Below, piece after piece: positions 5,597 through 23,386 of a stretch of 64,000 nucleotides of DNA. The position numbers and the translations under genes are program-made. This DNA is from Escherichia phage teqhal, in the sequence record MN895435.1, one strand, 5' to 3'. Position 1 is the stretch's first letter. Each line of letters opens with the position of its first letter. The notes beneath the pieces are model-generated. The model saw nothing but the letters and a program-made list of their open reading frames with translations. It was not told the DNA's origin and did no database searches.

Positions 5597-7184
<1,588 letters not shown>

Positions 7185-7187
7185 GCT

Positions 7188-7217
7188 GTTTACAAGTCCC
7201 TCATGTTGTGTTACAGT
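7188..7217 (+). promoter_or_regulatory. early (sigma70-dependent T4-type) promoter, copy A of a duplicated ~60-bp element
   Basis: GTTTAC 7188-7193, spacer, TG-n-TACAGT extended -10; upstream of alc. Confidence 0.6.
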
Positions 7218-7248
7218 AGTCTTACTGACATAACATGAGGACTTTATG

Positions 7249-7752
7249 ATGGATTTACAGCTTATTACTACTGAAATGGTCGTTGAAGCATACGGTGATA
7301 CTACAGATGGGATTTCTGTATTCAAAGGAAATCGTCGAGTTGGATATATCACCGATCTTAAGAAAGATTTAGCTAAGCAAGTCAAGCGGAAAACGACCAT
7401 TAAAGAATATCGAAATCGTCGTCTTGAGCAAGCCCGTGATATGCTTCCTGATGCGGTTGGGGAGATGAAAGTCTTTTTAGAAAATCAACTCGCTAAGTAT
7501 GATTGTGAAGTGTTCATTAATCAGACTCAACCTAATGTTCATATTAACAACTGTAAATGCTATATCATCGTTAATCCTTTGACGGGAAAACATCGTCTTG
7601 GAATTAGTAATCCAAATCGTAGTGCATCGGATATGGCAGAAGATGTTGAGGCATGCTTTAAAATTTCTAAATCTCCAGCTGAACATCATATTTTAATTAA
7701 CGGTCTTTCTCAAGACGATATTATAGAGGTTATTAAAACTTTATGCAATTAA
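7249..7752 (+). CDS. alc: Alc, inhibitor of host transcription on cytosine-containing DNA
   Basis: 167 aa from second ATG (MDLQLITTEM...); position between rnlA and pseT as in T4. Confidence 0.8.
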   Translation: MDLQLITTEMVVEAYGDTTDGISVFKGNRRVGYITDLKKDLAKQVKRKTTIKEYRNRRLEQARDMLPDAVGEMKVFLENQLAKYDCEVFINQTQPNVHINNCKCYIIVNPLTGKHRLGISNPNRSASDMAEDVEACFKISKSPAEHHILINGLSQDDIIEVIKTLCN

Positions 7753-10512: not shown

Positions 10513-10542
10513 GTTTACTTTACAGTAGAGTTGTGATATTAT
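10513..10542 (+). promoter_or_regulatory. early promoter
   Basis: GTTTAC 10513-10518, 18-nt spacer, TG-a-TATTAT. Confidence 0.6.
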
Positions 10543-10572
10543 GGCTCTACCAAACAAATGAGGAAATTGAAA

Positions 10573-13180: not shown

Positions 13181-13188
13181 TATAAATA
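13181..13188 (+). promoter_or_regulatory. late promoter motif TATAAATA
   Basis: Exact TATAAATA immediately after gene 31 stop, ~140 bp upstream of rIII. Confidence 0.45.
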
Positions 13189-13327: not shown

Positions 13328-13576
13328 ATGATTAAACAATTACAACACGCTCTTGAACTGCAACGAAACGCATGGAATAATGGTCACGAAAACTATGGCG
13401 CATCTATTGATGTTGAAGCCGAAGCTCTTGAAATCCTGCGTTATTTCAAACATCTGAATCCTGCTCAAACTGCATTAGCTGCTGAGCTTCAGGAAAAAGA
13501 TGAACTTAAATATGCTAAGCCTTTGGCTTCTGCTGCACGAAAAGCAGTTCGTCACTTTGTGGTAACACTGAAGTAA
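13328..13576 (+). CDS. rIII: lysis inhibition accessory protein rIII
   Basis: 82 aa MIKQLQHALELQRNAWNNGHENYG...; matches recalled T4 RIII. Confidence 0.9.
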   Translation: MIKQLQHALELQRNAWNNGHENYGASIDVEAEALEILRYFKHLNPAQTALAAELQEKDELKYAKPLASAARKAVRHFVVTLK

Positions 13577-14051: not shown

Positions 14052-14081
14052 GTTTACAGTATGGTTCCTTTGTGATAGTAT
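14052..14081 (+). promoter_or_regulatory. early promoter
   Basis: GTTTAC 14052-14057, spacer, TG-a-TAGTAT. Confidence 0.6.
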
Positions 14082-14108
14082 TATCTTACACAAACAAAGG
14101 AGAATAAA

Positions 14109-14441
14109 ATGAAAACGATTAATCTGAACGCTACAGTTAAAACTAAATGCTTCAACGGTAAATATGATGAAACTATGTGGTTCTTAATGGCAGTTGAAGG
14201 TGATATTATTGAAGTAGAAACAACAGAAGGTATGGGAACAGATTTCACCTTTACAATTCAAGTTCATAATTTCTTTACTGGTTGGATTTATGAATTGAAT
14301 ACAGTAATCGTTGGAAAAATTGAACAAAATGAATTAGGCGAATGGCATTATGTTACAGCTCGCCAACGTGCCGAACGCTTAATTGAGAAGATGAAAAAAG
14401 TTGGTAAACTTGACATGCAGCATTGGAAAGTAGTAAAATAA
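14109..14441 (+). CDS. hypothetical protein (110 aa)
   Basis: ORF with SD aaggag. Confidence 0.65.
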   Translation: MKTINLNATVKTKCFNGKYDETMWFLMAVEGDIIEVETTEGMGTDFTFTIQVHNFFTGWIYELNTVIVGKIEQNELGEWHYVTARQRAERLIEKMKKVGKLDMQHWKVVK

Positions 14442-14443
14442 TT

Positions 14444-14472
14444 GTTTACTTTGGTACAGGATATGATATTAT
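14444..14472 (+). promoter_or_regulatory. early promoter overlapping a GGTACAGG/CCTGTACC inverted repeat
   Basis: GTTTAC 14444-14449, spacer, TG-a-TATTAT; inverted repeat 14453-14460 / 14476-14483. Confidence 0.6.
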
Positions 14473-14509
14473 ATACCTGTACCGCAATTAAACATCTCGG
14501 AGAATAAAA

Positions 14510-14875
14510 ATGAACTACATCAACTTTGAACGTAAATATGTTTCTAATGGTATTGCAGGTTCTATTGATACTATTTGCCTTTGGAAACATCAAAATGGAT
14601 CAGTATGCGAAATTGAACAGTATATGACTCCTAACTACGTTTATATGCGATTTGAAAACGGTATCACGGTTTCAATCACGATGGAAGGTTCCAACTTTAA
14701 AATCGCTCTGGATGATGATTTCCGTCAACGCGATTTAGGGACTCATCCTTGCTGGAATGGTGTTAATCGTAAACTCTTAGTTAAAACTTGGATTCGTCAT
14801 ATTCTGAGTAACAAAGCCAAACCTGAGCATCTTGAAGCAATCTTTGATGTAGTTCTTAATGAATTTGATATTTAA
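14510..14875 (+). CDS. hypothetical protein (121 aa)
   Basis: ORF with SD ggag. Confidence 0.65.
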   Translation: MNYINFERKYVSNGIAGSIDTICLWKHQNGSVCEIEQYMTPNYVYMRFENGITVSITMEGSNFKIALDDDFRQRDLGTHPCWNGVNRKLLVKTWIRHILSNKAKPEHLEAIFDVVLNEFDI

Positions 14876-16888: not shown

Positions 16889-17157
16889 TGTTTGTTGTTC
16901 ACACTATTTATGAAAATGAAGGTAATACTACACGTGATTACGGTCACGTAAATCAATTTTTTAGATGCAATCCAGAATTCCGAGCTCAAAAAGACGAACG
17001 AATTTTTAAAAAATGTGTAGAGCAAGGTTTCATTTACGTCAAACACTGGATGCAAGGAAATAAAGTTAGAACCACGTACCACAGGTCTTTGACTGAGCTT
17101 AATGATGAATTGATTTATAATAGAGCTGTAAACCAAACTCTAAAGGATGAACAATGA
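16888..17157 (+). CDS. hypothetical protein (89 aa, T4 30.1 position)
   Basis: ORF. Confidence 0.55.
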   Translation: MFVVHTIYENEGNTTRDYGHVNQFFRCNPEFRAQKDERIFKKCVEQGFIYVKHWMQGNKVRTTYHRSLTELNDELIYNRAVNQTLKDEQ

Positions 17158-18617
17158 TTCTTAAAATTCTGAACGAAATAGCATCTATTGGTTCAACTAA
17201 GCAGAAGCAAGCAATTCTTGAAAAGAATAAAGATAATGAATTGCTTAAACGAGTATATCGTCTGACTTATTCTCGTGGGTTGCAGTATTATATCAAGAAA
17301 TGGCCTAAATCTGGTATTGCTACCCAGAGTTTTGGAATGTTGACTCTTACCGATATGCTTGACTTCATTGAATTCACGTTAGCTACTCGGAAATTGACCG
17401 GAAATGCGGCAATTGAGGAATTAACTGGATATATTGCTGACGGTAAAAAAGATGATGTTGAAGTTTTGCGTCGGGTGATGATGCGAGACCTTGAATGCGG
17501 TGCTTCAGTATCTATTGCAAACAAAGTTTGGCCAGGTTTAATTCCTGAACAACCTCAAATGCTTGCAAGTTCTTATGATGAAAAAGGCATTAATAAGAAT
17601 ATCAAATTTCCAGCTTTTGCCCAGTTAAAAGCTGATGGAGCTCGGTGTTTTGCTGAAGTTAGAGGTGATGAATTAGATGATGTTCGTCTTTTATCACGAG
17701 CTGGTAATGAATATCTAGGATTAGACCTTCTCAAAGAAGAGTTAATCAAAATGACCGCTGAAGCCCGCCAGATTCATCCAGAAGGTGTGTTAATTGATGG
17801 CGAATTGGTATACCATGAGCAAGTTAAAAAGGAGCCAGAAGGCCTAGATTTTCTTTTTGATGCTTATCCTGAAATTAGTAAAGCTAAAGAATTCGCCGAA
17901 GTAGCTGAATCACGTACTGCATCTAATGGCATCGCCAATAAATCTTTAAAGGGAACCATTTCTGAAAAAGAAGCACAATGCATGAAGTTTCAGGTCTGGG
18001 ATTATGTCCCGTTGGTAGAAGTATACGGTCTTCCAGCATTTCGCTTGAAATATGATGTACGTTTTTCTAAATTAGAACAAATGACATCAGGCTATGATAA
18101 AGTAATTTTAATTGAAAACCAGGTAGTAAATAACCTAGATGAAGCTAAGGTAATTTATAAAAAGTATATTGACCAAGGTCTTGAAGGTATTATTCTCAAA
18201 AATATCGATGGATTATGGGAAAATGCTCGTTCGAAAAATCTCTATAAATTTAAAGAAGTAATTGATGTTGATTTAAAAATTGTAGGAATTTATCCTCACC
18301 GTAAAGACCCTACTAAAGCAGGTGGATTTATTCTTGAGTCAGAGTGTGGAAAAATTAAGGTAAATGCTGGTTCAGGCTTAAAAGATAAAGCCGGCGTAAA
18401 ATCACATGAACTTGACCGTACTCGCATTATGGAAAACCAAAATTATTATATTGGAAAAATTCTAGAGTGCGAATGCAACGGTTGGTTAAAATCTGATGGC
18501 CGCACTGATTACGTTAAATTATTTCTTCCAATTGCGATTCGTTTGCGTGAAGATAAAACTAAAGCTAATACATTCGAAGATGTATTTGGTGATTTTCATG
18601 AGGTAACTGGTTTATGA
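17154..18617 (+). CDS. 30: ATP-dependent DNA ligase
   Basis: 487 aa MILKILNEIASIGSTKQKQAIL...; adenylation lysine motif KADGAR; matches recalled T4 DNA ligase. Confidence 0.96.
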   Translation: MILKILNEIASIGSTKQKQAILEKNKDNELLKRVYRLTYSRGLQYYIKKWPKSGIATQSFGMLTLTDMLDFIEFTLATRKLTGNAAIEELTGYIADGKKDDVEVLRRVMMRDLECGASVSIANKVWPGLIPEQPQMLASSYDEKGINKNIKFPAFAQLKADGARCFAEVRGDELDDVRLLSRAGNEYLGLDLLKEELIKMTAEARQIHPEGVLIDGELVYHEQVKKEPEGLDFLFDAYPEISKAKEFAEVAESRTASNGIANKSLKGTISEKEAQCMKFQVWDYVPLVEVYGLPAFRLKYDVRFSKLEQMTSGYDKVILIENQVVNNLDEAKVIYKKYIDQGLEGIILKNIDGLWENARSKNLYKFKEVIDVDLKIVGIYPHRKDPTKAGGFILESECGKIKVNAGSGLKDKAGVKSHELDRTRIMENQNYYIGKILECECNGWLKSDGRTDYVKLFLPIAIRLREDKTKANTFEDVFGDFHEVTGL

Positions 18618-18802: not shown

Positions 18803-18824
18803 AGGCCTTCGGGCCTTTAATTTT
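18801..18824 (+). terminator. rho-independent terminator-like hairpin
   Basis: aaaggcc-ttcg-ggccttt followed by aatttta. Confidence 0.65.
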
Positions 18825-18831
18825 ATAAATA
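18824..18831 (+). promoter_or_regulatory. late promoter TATAAATA upstream of alt
   Basis: Exact TATAAATA ~22 bp before the alt start. Confidence 0.7.
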
Positions 18832-18854
18832 GAATAAACACTAGAGAGGATATG

Positions 18855-20948
18855 ATGGAACTCATTACAGAATTATTTGACGAAGATACTACTCTTCCGA
18901 TTACAAACTTAAATCCAAAGAAGAAAATACCACAAATTTTTTCAGTTCACGTTGATGATGCAATTGAACAACCAGGCTTTCGTTTATGTACCTATACATC
19001 TGGAGGTGATACTAATCGCGATTTAAAGATGGGCGATAAAATGATGCATATTGTTCCTTTTACATTAACTGCTAAAGGTTCAATTGCTAAATTGAAAGGT
19101 CTTGGTCCAAGCCCAATTAATTATATCAATTCAGTTTTTACTGTTGCAATGCAAACAATGCGTCAGTATAAAATTGATGCCTGTATGCTCCGTATTCTTA
19201 AGTCTAAAACTGCTGGTCAAGCTCGACAAATTCAAGTTATTGCTGATAGACTTATCCGTAGTCGTTCAGGTGGAAGATACGTCCTTCTTAAGGAACTCTG
19301 GGATTATGATAAAAAGTATGCATATATTCTTATACATCGCAAAAATGTATCACTAGAAGACATTCCAGGAGTTCCGGAAATTAGTACCGAGCTCTTTACT
19401 AAGGTTGAATCGAAGGTCGGTGATGTTTATATCAATAAAGATACTGGAGCTCAAGTAACTAAAAATGAGGCAATTGCAGCATCTATTGCACAAGAAAATG
19501 ATAAACGTTCTGACCAAGCTGTAATCGTTAAAGTTAAAATTTCCCGTAGAGCAATTGCACAAAGTCAGTCATTGGAATCTTCTAGATTTGAAAGTGAATT
19601 ATTCCAGAAGTATGAATCTACCGCAGCTAATTTCAATAAACCTGCTACTGCTCCTTTAATTCCCGAAGCAGAAGAAATGAAGCTTGGAATTAATTCATTA
19701 GCTTCTAAAACTAAGGCAGCAAAAATTATTGCCGAAGGAACTGCGAATGAACTTCACTATGACTATAAATTCTTTTCAAAAAGTGAGGTTAATGAAGTTT
19801 CCGAAAAAATTAAAGATGTAATTCTTAATGCGATCAAAAATGAACCAACTACTTCAATAAAATGTTTAGAGAAATACGCAGCAGCTGTCAATCAATTCTT
19901 TGAAAAATATAAAGATAATTGGCTTGATAAACATAATAAAACTCGTAAAGGGCAGCCAGATGAAGTCTGGGAAGAAATAACTAAAAATTCCTGGAACGCA
20001 GCAAAAACTAAATTCCTCAAACGAATGATTTATAGTTTTTCTGGAATTGGTGCAGGCCCAATGATTGATATTACTATTGCCCGCGATGGTTCTAAATATA
20101 CTCCATCACAAAAGCGTGGCATTAGAGAATATTGCGGTTCAGGATATACTGACATCAATAATCTTCTTTTAGGTCGTTACAATCCAGAACGATATGATGT
20201 AATGAGTGAAAAAGAAATTGAATCTGCTATAAATAATTTAGATTCAGCTTTTGAAAATGGTGACCGTATACCAGAAGGCATTACAGTTTATCGTGCTCAA
20301 AGCATGACTGCTCCTATATACGAAGCACTAGTTAAAAATAAAGTGTTCTATTTCAGAAATTTTGTATCTACTTCTTTAACTCCTATCATTTTTGGACGTT
20401 TTGGAATTACACATGCTGGTATTGGTCTTTTAGAACCAGAAGCTCGTAACGAATTAACGGTTGATAAAAATGAAGAAGGAATAACTATTAATCCAAACGA
20501 AATAAGAGCGTATAAAGAAAATCCTGAATACGTTAAAGTTCAAATAGGATGGGCAATTGATGGAGCTCATAAAGTTAATGTTGTATATCCAGGAAGTCTC
20601 GGAATAGCAACAGAAGCTGAAGTTATTCTACCGCGCGGATTGATGGTTAAAGTTAATAAAATAACTGATGCTTCTAATAATGACGGAACCACGTCTAATA
20701 ATACAAAACTCATTCAAGCTGAAGTTATGACCACAGAAGAACTCACCGAATCGGTAATCTATGACGGAGACCATTTAATGGAAACCGGCGAAGTAGTTGC
20801 AATGACAGGTGATATTGAAATAGAAGACAGAGTTGACTTTGCATCATTTGTTTCATCAAATGTTAAACAGAAAGTAGAATCATCTCTTGGAATTATTGCG
20901 TCTTGCATAGATATTACAAACATGCCTTACAAGTTCGTTCAAGGATAA
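18855..20948 (+). CDS. alt: Alt-family ADP-ribosyltransferase (capsid-packaged), copy 1
   Basis: 697 aa from MELITELFDE...; C-terminal R-S-ExE motifs (YRAQ, VSTSL, EAEVILPRG). Confidence 0.85.
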   Translation: MELITELFDEDTTLPITNLNPKKKIPQIFSVHVDDAIEQPGFRLCTYTSGGDTNRDLKMGDKMMHIVPFTLTAKGSIAKLKGLGPSPINYINSVFTVAMQTMRQYKIDACMLRILKSKTAGQARQIQVIADRLIRSRSGGRYVLLKELWDYDKKYAYILIHRKNVSLEDIPGVPEISTELFTKVESKVGDVYINKDTGAQVTKNEAIAASIAQENDKRSDQAVIVKVKISRRAIAQSQSLESSRFESELFQKYESTAANFNKPATAPLIPEAEEMKLGINSLASKTKAAKIIAEGTANELHYDYKFFSKSEVNEVSEKIKDVILNAIKNEPTTSIKCLEKYAAAVNQFFEKYKDNWLDKHNKTRKGQPDEVWEEITKNSWNAAKTKFLKRMIYSFSGIGAGPMIDITIARDGSKYTPSQKRGIREYCGSGYTDINNLLLGRYNPERYDVMSEKEIESAINNLDSAFENGDRIPEGITVYRAQSMTAPIYEALVKNKVFYFRNFVSTSLTPIIFGRFGITHAGIGLLEPEARNELTVDKNEEGITINPNEIRAYKENPEYVKVQIGWAIDGAHKVNVVYPGSLGIATEAEVILPRGLMVKVNKITDASNNDGTTSNNTKLIQAEVMTTEELTESVIYDGDHLMETGEVVAMTGDIEIEDRVDFASFVSSNVKQKVESSLGIIASCIDITNMPYKFVQG

Positions 20949-20951
20949 ATC

Positions 20952-23009
20952 ATGGAACTTATTACAGAATTATTTGACGGCGCTTCGGCGCCGGTTGTTA
21001 ACTTAAATCCTAAGCATAAAATACCACAAATTTTTGCTATTCAAGCCGGCGAAGAAAGTGTGCTTCCTGGATTTAGATTTTGTACATACACCTCTGGCGG
21101 TGATACAAATAAAAACGTTAAGCCAGGCGATAAAATGATGCATATCGTAATGATAGGCGTCAACGAGAAATTATCGCTGGTTAAGCTTAGAAACTTGGGT
21201 GGAAATCCAATTGGCGTCATTAATGCGGTTTTTGATACTGCTCTTCAAACAATGAAGCAGTATAAAATCGACGCATGCTTATTCCGCGTACTAAAAAGTA
21301 AAACAAATGGCGCAGCTCGTCAAATGCAAGTTATTGCTGACCGTTTAGTACGTACTAAAGGAGCAGGTCGATATGTTCTTTTAAAGGAAATCTGGGATTA
21401 TGATAAAAAGTACGCATATATTATGGTTTACCGTAAAAATGCCAAATTAGAAGACATTCCAGGTGTACCTCCTATTTCAACTGAGTTATTCACAAAAGTT
21501 GAATCAAAGGTTGGTGATGTTTATGTAGACGTTAAAACAGGTAATGCTGTTCCTAAAGCTGTTGCTGTTGCTGCTTCTATTGCTTTAGAAAATGATAAGC
21601 GCACGGATCAAGCTGTTATTCAGAAAACTAAAATTAGTCGTCGATTAGCAGCGCAAGCTCAATATTCTACTGTTGATGCTTCACTTCAGGGTGATAGCTT
21701 CGCTGCTAAGAAATATCAAGAGTTTGAATCTAAAGTTCCGGTATATAAAGCAGAAGGACCAATGAACTCTGGCGTTATTCAGATTGGTTCAAACTTTAGC
21801 AAAGGAGCTATCGGTGGTATGAGAAGTGCTTCTCGTTTTAAATCTAGCGATTATGAACTAGAAAGTTTCCGAAATCATATTGCATTAGCCCATGCACGTT
21901 TACGTGATCCATCTATCAAGTTGCAGAGCGATATAACATATCAAGGTTCTCAAGAATATTTAAAGAATAAAGAATTCTTTGATTATAAAACTGATAAAAT
22001 TTTAAGCGATCTTGCTGATATTAATATTTCTAATAGCTTTGATGTTATTAAGAAAATTATCAATGATTTGGTTAAAGGTTCTAAAGCTACGCCAGATGAA
22101 AAGACAGCTATTATTCAATTTGTCATGAATGGCATTTATAAATTGATTAATGAATCTGCTGCTCAGGCATATGAATACGCAAGCACTGAAGTAACTCCAA
22201 AAGGACTGACTCAGGCTGAGTCTGATGTAATTGAAGATTATTGTGCAGATTCATATGTTGAAATGAACTCGTTCCTTTTGGGTAAACCAGATTCTACCCG
22301 TGAAGAATATATGGAACGAGCTATTAAGCACATTGAGACGTTGGATTCTGCATTCGCTAAAGGTTCAGTTCTTCCTCCAGGAACTACGCTTTATCGTGGA
22401 CAAGAAGTTACCTTTAAAACTTTGCGTCATAACATTGAAAACAAAATGTTCTATTTCAAGAACTTCGTATCGACATCGCTTAAACCAAATATCTTCGGTG
22501 AGCATGGTAAAAACTATATGGCTCTAGATGATTCCGGTGCAGTATTTTCTGGCGAAGGAGAAGGTTCTGTTGATGCAGAAGATTTAATGCATATGGGTAG
22601 TCATTCTGCATATGCTAATGAAGATGCTGAAACTAGCGTAGGTATGGTAATTAAAGGGGCTGAGCGAATCAAAGTTATCGTTCCAGGTCATTTATCAGGA
22701 TTTCCATCAGAAGCTGAAGTTATTCTACCACGTGGAATTTTGTTAAAGATTAATAAAGTAAGCACGTACATGATGAAAGAAACTGCTTATAACAAGTATC
22801 TAATCGAAGGCACAATCGTTCCTCCTTCTGACCAATTAGAAGAATCAGTATATGATGGCGACCATTTAATGGAAACTGGTGAAGTTCGTCCAATGGCTGG
22901 ATTTAATCAATTCCTTGTAGAAGAATCAAAAGAAGAGGAAAACGAAGTTTCTCAAATCTTGGCTTCTTTGGTTAACATCAACGGAATGTCTAAAAAGTTC
23001 AAAATGTAG
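20952..23009 (+). CDS. Alt-family ADP-ribosyltransferase paralogue, copy 2
   Basis: 685 aa, same N-terminus MELITELFD and conserved N-terminal ~230 aa; R-S-ExE motifs (YRGQ, VSTSL, EAEVILPRG); divergent middle region. Confidence 0.85.
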   Translation: MELITELFDGASAPVVNLNPKHKIPQIFAIQAGEESVLPGFRFCTYTSGGDTNKNVKPGDKMMHIVMIGVNEKLSLVKLRNLGGNPIGVINAVFDTALQTMKQYKIDACLFRVLKSKTNGAARQMQVIADRLVRTKGAGRYVLLKEIWDYDKKYAYIMVYRKNAKLEDIPGVPPISTELFTKVESKVGDVYVDVKTGNAVPKAVAVAASIALENDKRTDQAVIQKTKISRRLAAQAQYSTVDASLQGDSFAAKKYQEFESKVPVYKAEGPMNSGVIQIGSNFSKGAIGGMRSASRFKSSDYELESFRNHIALAHARLRDPSIKLQSDITYQGSQEYLKNKEFFDYKTDKILSDLADINISNSFDVIKKIINDLVKGSKATPDEKTAIIQFVMNGIYKLINESAAQAYEYASTEVTPKGLTQAESDVIEDYCADSYVEMNSFLLGKPDSTREEYMERAIKHIETLDSAFAKGSVLPPGTTLYRGQEVTFKTLRHNIENKMFYFKNFVSTSLKPNIFGEHGKNYMALDDSGAVFSGEGEGSVDAEDLMHMGSHSAYANEDAETSVGMVIKGAERIKVIVPGHLSGFPSEAEVILPRGILLKINKVSTYMMKETAYNKYLIEGTIVPPSDQLEESVYDGDHLMETGEVRPMAGFNQFLVEESKEEENEVSQILASLVNINGMSKKFKM

Positions 23010-23038
23010 TTTACAAGTTCCTTATGTTGTGTTATAGT
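23008..23038 (+). promoter_or_regulatory. early promoter, copy B of the duplicated ~60-bp element
   Basis: GTTTAC 23008-23013, spacer, TG-t-TATAGT; near-identical to 7188-7245. Confidence 0.6.
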
Positions 23039-23069
23039 AGTCTTACTGACATAACATGAGGAACACAAA

Positions 23070-23360
23070 ATGAAATCTTCTTTGCGCTTTTTAGGTCAAG
23101 AACTTGTAGTTGAAGGCGTTATTCCTGCTGATAACGCTTTTAATGAAGCAGTTTACGATGAATTTATTAAAATTTTTGGAACAGATAAAAAGTTCGGAAT
23201 TTTTCCTTCTGAAAATTTTTCAAAGTCAGAACAGACTGAAAGTATTTTTCAGGGTGTAGTAACAGGTAAATTTGAGTCAGAAGCTCCGGTAAAAATTGAA
23301 GTTTATATTGAAGACAGTTTAGTTGCTTCAGTTGCTGCTTTCATTTCATTCCGTAAATAA
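23070..23360 (+). CDS. hypothetical protein (96 aa)
   Basis: ORF with SD gagga downstream of the early promoter. Confidence 0.6.
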   Translation: MKSSLRFLGQELVVEGVIPADNAFNEAVYDEFIKIFGTDKKFGIFPSENFSKSEQTESIFQGVVTGKFESEAPVKIEVYIEDSLVASVAAFISFRK

Positions 23361-23364
23361 AAAT

Positions 23365-23386
23365 ATGGGGACCGAAAGGTCCCCAT
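23365..23386. terminator. bidirectional terminator hairpin between convergent genes
   Basis: atggggacc-gaaa-ggtccccat; U-run on the minus-strand side. Confidence 0.65.

Follow-up and report, generated by a model that had tools for sequence, protein, structure and literature searches.

Two early promoters lying about 16 kb apart in Escherichia phage teqhal (MN895435.1) resemble each other through their transcribed leaders and Shine-Dalgarno (SD) sequences, well beyond what promoter function requires, and they raise the question of what the shared leader is for and what keeps the two copies alike. The stretch analysed, referred to here as the window, comprises 64,000 nucleotides and belongs to a Tequatrovirus, with 97 to 99% identity to many T4-like records. 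The leader identity is explained by a conserved anti-SD hairpin in which the promoter is embedded, together with gene conversion between the two copies, and this hairpin probably allows only RNA started at its own promoter to be translated, as judged from modeled folds.

The repeat and its neighbors

The repeat is 54 bp long and occurs as two direct copies on the + strand, at 7188 to 7241 and at 23009 to 23062, 15,821 bp apart; the exact pattern match finds 51 of the 54 positions alike, and the three differences are all exchanges between C and T. No chance match to it is expected (0 in 100 shuffles), the flanks of the two copies are unrelated sequence, and comparison of the 64-kb window with itself by blastn-short returned just these two copies, with no third or partial one. 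The pair of near-identical elements in the original prediction is therefore real, but its ends at 7245 and 23066 overshoot the shared segment by a few bases. According to Pfam, copy 1 lies between rnlA (RNA ligase 1; 6024 to 7184, + strand, stop codon at 7182 to 7184) and alc (ALC, PF17527, E = 1e-90; 7249 to 7752, + strand, counted from its second ATG). Copy 2 follows two full-length paralogues of the Alt ADP-ribosyltransferase (698 and 685 aa; 18852 to 20948 and 20952 to 23009, + strand), overlapping the stop codon of the second (23007 to 23009), and precedes the ATG at 23070 of a 96-aa DUF5498 protein (23070 to 23360, + strand; PF17602, E = 2e-63), the alt.-3 homologue by synteny with T4. 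These assignments confirm the neighbors that had been named for both copies. The second Alt paralogue, full-length in the window, is degraded to the alt.-1 and alt.-2 fragments in T4.

Two ATGs stand in tandem within 7246 to 7251 at the start of alc; the first (7246) is ATA in KMB39 and UGKSEcP2, and the second (7249) is kept. The T4 annotation starts alc at the second ATG, from which the SD-AUG spacing is 7 nt, as for alt.-3, and the true start is most likely the one at 7249.

T4 itself has both copies at orthologous sites. A 63-nt query from the repeat matched 997 places in 499 phage records, nearly all of them T4-type, which amounts to two per genome, and both copies are retained in every complete genome among these records. 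An exact-pattern scan found 10 instances in IMG/VR and 6 in metagenome contigs. The original prediction had also envisaged recombination that deletes or inverts the intervening 16 kb. Because the copies are direct repeats, inversion by simple homologous exchange is ruled out. Deletion would remove the genes for DNA ligase (gene 30) and the gp31 co-chaperonin, both essential in T4, and it finds no counterpart in the complete genomes.

An early promoter embedded in a hairpin

Both copies match the consensus of T4-type early promoters (Pe), that is, GTTTAC(A/T), a spacer of 17 +/- 1 bp, TGn, and TAnnnT. The consensus scan places the alc promoter at 7189 to 7217 (+ strand), with the -35 TTTACA at 7189 to 7194 (preceded by G at 7188), a 17-bp spacer, TG at 7209 to 7210, and the -10 TACAGT at 7212 to 7217. 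The alt.-3 promoter occupies 23010 to 23038 (+ strand), with TTTACA at 23010 to 23015, TG at 23030 to 23031, and TATAGT at 23033 to 23038. The -35 and extended -10 motifs expected in both copies were thus recovered as TTTACA, a 17-bp spacer, TGn, and TAYAGT. Judged from promoter geometry, transcription would start at about 7224 (7223 to 7225, 7 nt past the -10) for alc and at about 23045 for alt.-3, both on the + strand. A literature search for T4 start-site maps or a study of the alc promoter gave nothing usable; the two promoters may well be catalogued already in the classic T4 promoter tables.

Each copy is also an inverted repeat that forms a 22-bp hairpin in + strand RNA. The hairpin of copy 1 (7194 to 7244) has a 5' arm consisting of the spacer and the -10 (7194 to 7218), a loop at 7219 to 7222, and a 3' arm consisting of the leader and the SD (7223 to 7244), and that of copy 2 (23017 to 23064) has its 5' arm at 23017 to 23039, its loop at 23040 to 23043, and its 3' arm at 23044 to 23064. 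The SD (GAGGA) lies inside the helix in both copies, at 7237 to 7241 wholly within the 3' arm and at 23058 to 23062 enclosed by the copy 2 hairpin, and the AUG lies outside. The predicted folding energy is -28.8 kcal/mol (z = -5.5) for copy 1 and -25.7 kcal/mol (z = -6.0) for copy 2, and the opposite strands fold more weakly (-22.3 and -15.7 kcal/mol, respectively). The copy 1 hairpin persists when 100 nt of upstream context is folded with it, and the alt.-3 copy has a compensating flank of its own, in which T11 pairs with the A of GAGGAA to give a bulge-free helix. The identity through leader and SD, correctly seen in the original prediction, which missed the inverted repeat, arises mainly because the leader is the 3' arm of a hairpin that has the promoter spacer as its 5' arm. 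Since the -10 itself belongs to the 5' arm, RNA from the cassette's own promoter would lack this arm; the position of the 5' strand upstream of the predicted start follows from geometry if the promoter is used.

An intrinsic terminator, with a GC-rich hairpin followed by a U-run, was considered and rejected: the U-tract is absent after both hairpins, and the terminator scan calls neither. An Rfam search at a permissive E-value returned only sub-threshold noise (best score, 23.5 bits against a threshold of 60).

Predicted accessibility of the ribosome site

The hairpin makes the predicted fate of the SD depend on where the RNA begins. The probability that the SD is unpaired is predicted to be at most 0.07 in read-through RNA, compared with 0.5 to 0.99 in promoter-proximal alc RNA, and opening the region from SD-2 to AUG+2 is predicted to cost 16 to 17 kcal/mol in read-through RNA versus 3 to 5 kcal/mol in promoter-proximal RNA, for both genes and with several 3' ends. 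For the short alt.-3 transcript, the folding model gives weak pairing between the SD and the coding sequence, and the opening cost is still low.

Read-through RNA with both arms is expected at both sites because there are promoters upstream and no predicted + strand terminator in between. The middle promoters PnrdB and PI-TevIII precede denA-rnlA-alc, and the middle promoter P30 precedes 30-alt.1-alt-alt.-3, in each case on the same strand (PMC2988021). The T4 late-promoter consensus TATAAATA occurs on the + strand at 18824 to 18831, 21 nt before the first alt ATG (18852), where it may give late read-through into copy 2. No + strand terminator was predicted after rnlA before the copy 1 hairpin, or between this late-promoter consensus (18824) and 23365. 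T4 omics data list alc and alt.-3 as early RNA and early protein, rnlA as early RNA and late protein, denA and alt as middle RNA and late protein, and alt.-1/alt.-2 as middle RNA (PMC9697503 supplements). The terminator scan found a bidirectional terminator-like hairpin (23365 to 23386, both strands) that would end the alt.-3 transcript; it is a perfect, GC-rich 9-bp hairpin between alt.-3 and a convergent baseplate gene, and it would make the promoter-proximal alt.-3 transcript only about 340 nt long. The sequence TATAAATA is also present on the + strand at 13181 to 13188, directly after the gp31 (Cpn10) ORF and about 140 nt before an 82-aa ORF at 13328 (the rIII position).

We consider it fairly probable that the hairpin-embedded early promoter gates translation by transcript start and that the cassette was copied from alc to alt.-3 and kept alike by conversion. 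The T4-type early promoter would occupy the 5' arm and loop of the hairpin, and the SD-bearing leader would be the 3' arm. Host RNA polymerase starting at about 7224 or 23045 would produce RNA without the 5' arm, its ribosome site would be open, and Alc and Alt.-3 could be made right after infection. RNA entering from upstream, from rnlA or alt, would carry both arms, the hairpin would bury the SD, and these longer, later transcripts would be translated poorly. The synthesis of Alc and Alt.-3 would thereby be confined to the short period in which the early promoters fire. The anatomy, predicted energetics, conservation, and covariation of the cassette are observed features, from which we infer the start site and the block of translation. 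Translational coupling through the upstream stop codon was set aside as an explanation and is kept as a caveat. From the upstream stop codon to the base of the helix there are 10 nt at alc and 8 nt at alt.-3; a ribosome terminating at that codon would reach the outermost pairs only, and it might fray the base of the helix.

Conservation of the alc hairpin across T4-like genera

We compared 24 alc and 20 alt.-3 homologues from IMG/VR, along with SP18, PhAPEC2, and Melville from GenBank. Early promoters occupy orthologous positions in every genus sampled, at alc as well as at alt.-3. Upstream of alc, most genera show GTTTACA, an anti-SD arm in the spacer, the -10, and then a leader arm with the SD. 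The arms differ in sequence yet remain complementary, as in the pairs CCTCATGTT/AACATGAGG, CTCCGTTT/AAACGGAG, CTCCTCAG/CTGAGGAG, CCTCTCATTTT/AAAATGAGAGG, and CCTCGTTTGTT/AACAAACGAGG. In per-sequence duplex calculations on 20 distinct alc leaders, the part that the cassette's own promoter does not transcribe pairs with the SD region of the leader in 14, at -17 to -25.5 kcal/mol and each with a spacer-shuffle p of <= 0.002, which is the floor of the test. The other six, the Mosigvirus-like ones among them, do not sequester the SD. The exceptions to the common layout comprise the VR25/SP18 type, with the 5' arm between the -10 and +1, three leaders in which the hairpin stops immediately upstream of the SD, and the Mosigvirus-like leaders, which have a small spacer hairpin only.

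The 10-bp basal helix of the alc leaders gave a covariation score of 0.765, compared with 0.244 for shuffled sequences (reached in 0 of 500) and 0.08 to 0.18 for slid partners, in an alignment anchored at the pair with the last G of the SD core and so fitted to pairing; 95.5% of its cells pair, and nine of its ten pairs change on both sides. The per-sequence duplex test is independent of this anchored alignment. Unanchored alignment of 20 cross-genus alc leaders (MAFFT and RNAalifold) found no consensus structure because the position of the stem relative to the -35 varies from leader to leader. Outside Tequatrovirus, counts of G-U versus A-C pairs do not discriminate the strand, since the helices are nearly all Watson-Crick.

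Phages of the SP18/VR25 type (SP18 17072 to 17892; L028, L029, and L045) carry a duplicated N-terminal alc fragment, alcb, before the full alca. The promoter and an SD-sequestering local hairpin precede alcb, and the GC-rich stem GGGGTGTACAAGCCCC overlaps the -35.

Origin of the second copy and continuing gene conversion

The hairpin at the early promoter of alt.-3 differs between genera. Within Tequatrovirus, it is of the alc type (-22 to -26 kcal/mol); elsewhere, it is short, involves the spacer only, and leaves the SD free (-4 to -9 kcal/mol). The cassette therefore appears to be ancestral at alc, and the Tequatrovirus alt.-3 copy would have been made from the alc one. The alc cassette of Tequatrovirus is 0.78 to 0.80 identical to that of a JS98-like contig; in the same alignment, unrelated early promoter-plus-leader regions are 0.57 to 0.75 identical, versus 0.86 for the Tequatrovirus pair.

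Among 44 Tequatrovirus instances of the cassette drawn from GenBank records, 12 of the 54 sites vary, and the variation falls on 9 of 25 sites in the 5' arm versus 1 of 19 in the leader arm (Fisher p = 0.027). Of the eight variants at paired positions, five preserve the pairing through G-U or compensation and three break it (C12A, T19C, and G29A); the pair-breaking G29A turns the -10 into a perfect TATAAT. Within Tequatrovirus, the sense folds beat the antisense folds.

The two loci have six polymorphisms in common versus 1.5 expected (p = 2e-4). The linked haplotypes T11-T15-A16 and A29-A32 are found at alc or at alt.-3 depending on the genome, and the rare C19 occurs in both copies of UGKSEcP2. 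The shared polymorphisms and linked haplotypes indicate that the copies undergo continuing ectopic gene conversion, which would keep both alike; what these sequence patterns indicate is conversion, not crossover or mini-circles.

In a JS98-like genome (contig 2706795356; L034 1147 to 1206, L054 about 1140 to 1203), the alc and alt.-3 leaders are identical at 29 of 30 positions from the -10 to the ATG, and the spacers differ, with an anti-SD at alc versus a local hairpin at alt.-3. This suggests a second, separate homogenization, but part of the leader is generic early-leader consensus.

Similar designs at other early promoters

Dyads extend across the promoter at the window's three remaining T4-type early promoters as well. 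One of them (14052 to 14111; TTTACA at 14053 to 14058, -10 TAGTAT at 14076 to 14081) has a spacer segment, TTCCTTTG (14065 to 14072), complementary to its SD region, CAAAGGAG (14095 to 14102), at -11.3 kcal/mol (p of about 0.003 to 0.02). Its design is that of the alc cassette, its sequence is unrelated, and it is followed by an ORF of 110 aa (14109 to 14441, phrog_1507). At the other two (10513 to 10560 and 14444 to 14512), the dyads GTAGAG..CTCTAC and GGTACAGGATAT..ATATACCTGTACC span the -10 and stop short of the SD. The latter dyads, at 10514 and 14445, fit the description of PeSLs better than an anti-SD reading. A PeSL is an intergenic early promoter with an overlapping stem-loop and with the SD and start codon at its 3' end; PeSLs of T4-like phages recur within a genome and serve as sites of recombination, and their stems have been read as terminators or attenuators, with translation not discussed (Arbiol 2010, Comeau 2014).

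Genome-wide, we scanned OZ035784, a 99%-identical relative with 32 early promoters that have an adjacent gene. Complementarity between the spacer and the SD window reached p <= 0.01 at 9 of the 32, and pairing of <= -19 kcal/mol was found in 5 of 32 cognate versus 8 of 992 non-cognate combinations (permutation p = 2e-4); most of the eight non-cognate pairings are between paralogous cassettes. The strong cases include the gene of a RegB-type endoribonuclease (phrog_1323; - strand, 136715), where the early-promoter spacer TTTTCCTCTTGACTG pairs with the gene's own SD region CAGTTAAGAGGAGAA at -21.4 kcal/mol. The regB gene is tightly regulated, and an anti-SD in its promoter is absent from the review of T4 control (PMC3014915). 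A second near-identical cassette pair is also among the strong cases; it lies outside the window, on the - strand of OZ035784 at 72407 and 127232, about 55 kb apart (GTTTACAAGACTGTTCCTCTGTGGTA..CTATCAACTACGGAGGAACA), with the anti-SD in the spacer at -26 and -23 kcal/mol. A third promoter outside the window (- strand, 72913) has its leader in common with this pair and has a local spacer hairpin only.

It is conceivable, and we put it forward tentatively, that the spacer anti-SD is a general device of T4-type phages. Translation would then depend on transcript start, and some of the early proteins (Alc and Alt.-3, the RegB-type nuclease, and others) would be made only during the first minutes of infection despite read-through, the alc cassette being conserved across the Tevenvirinae and copied to alt.-3 in Tequatrovirus.

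Alternative explanations

The cassettes could be PeSLs as published, with a stem-loop that terminates or attenuates upstream transcription and serves as a recombination site and with SD sequestration being incidental, a reading that overlaps with translational gating. The composite anatomy matches the published description, PeSLs have been reported for the PST/T4 pair (Arbiol 2010, Comeau 2014), the shared haplotypes reflect exchange between the two copies, and other early promoters in the window have dyads, of which those at 10514 and 14445 stop short of the SD. However, both hairpins lack the U-tract and escape the terminator scan, and termination needs no SD in the 3' arm, yet 14 of the 20 alc leaders have it there, with covariation; moreover, the PST/T4 stems are described as lying just upstream of the promoter, and translation is never mentioned. 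We therefore regard this reading as unlikely. The PeSL precedent, the shared polymorphisms and linked haplotypes, and the restriction of the alt.-3 cassette to Tequatrovirus do agree with the early suggestion of a portable cassette or recombination substrate, so that the original interpretation of the repeat is partly supported.

Still less probable is that recent duplication or gene conversion of a promoter left the two copies nearly identical without selection for likeness, with a hairpin that matters at alc and an alt.-3 copy selected as a promoter only. The cassette is indeed restricted at alt.-3 to Tequatrovirus, and haplotypes do move between the loci, but neither copy is missing from any complete genome among the 499 records, a compensating flank is peculiar to the alt.-3 copy (T11 with the A of GAGGAA), and variation hardly touches the leader arm (1 of 19 sites, compared with 9 of 25 for the 5' arm). 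The hairpin might instead be an element of RNA processing or stability, such as a site for RNase III or a stem protecting the 3' ends of the rnlA and alt mRNAs, or the leader might be the binding site of a shared regulator. A helix of about 22 bp with small interruptions, and a leader arm conserved far beyond what pairing requires, would suit such roles; yet we know of no trans-acting factor for the leader, there is no Rfam match, and between genera the leader sequences vary and the pairing to the SD is what is conserved, which makes these roles very unlikely as well.

Implications of the proposed translational gating

Gating of this kind, if it operates, would give the early-to-middle switch of T4 an additional, simple control in cis, one that ties the synthesis of a protein to a single class of promoter regardless of later read-through. 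The early shut-off in T4 has been described as not yet fully understood. Some PeSL stem-loops, at least, would then be reinterpreted as translational gates, not terminators, and in phage engineering, putting a gene behind a cassette of this kind would restrict its expression to transcripts from the promoter within the cassette. Were the general-device reading true, it would imply co-regulation of Alc and Alt.-3, and the uncharacterized Alt.-3 might then share a role in shutting off the host. The pair also shows clearly, in a natural setting, how gene conversion can keep two regulatory cassettes alike over a distance of 16 kb.

Comparison with known systems

The alc and alt.-3 cassettes share with T4 early promoters the GTTTAC(A/T) -35, the 17-bp spacer, TGn, and the -10; an ordinary Pe needs no complementarity between spacer and leader, whereas these cassettes have it. 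Both also fit the anatomical definition of PeSLs, including the intergenic position, and the copies recombine, as PeSL copies do, in the form of gene conversion. Unlike PeSLs as described, their stem specifically pairs the spacer with the SD. There are only two copies with this sequence, 16 kb apart, and because the genes between them are essential, excision of a mini-circle would not yield viable phage.

The proposed mechanism resembles that of T4 e, soc, 49, and I-TevI, where the SD lies in a helix, the long transcripts are silent, and the promoter-proximal ones are translated (PMC3014915). As in these genes, the SD of alc and alt.-3 is predicted to be paired in a helix, and the 5' strand of that helix precedes the start of an internal promoter. 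The 2010 review of T4 post-transcriptional control does not include alc, alt.-3, or regB among its hairpin examples (PMC3014915), and as far as we found in the literature examined, the design is known in T4 for late promoters and has not been described for early ones. The late-promoter consensus TATAAATA is absent from both the alc and the alt.-3 elements. The internal promoters of e, soc, 49, and I-TevI are late, and the silenced RNA is early or middle; those of alc and alt.-3 are early and sigma-70-type, and the silenced RNA would be later read-through. Because the internal promoter is early and not late, the temporal logic of the alc and alt.-3 cassettes would be inverted relative to that of e, soc, 49, and I-TevI.
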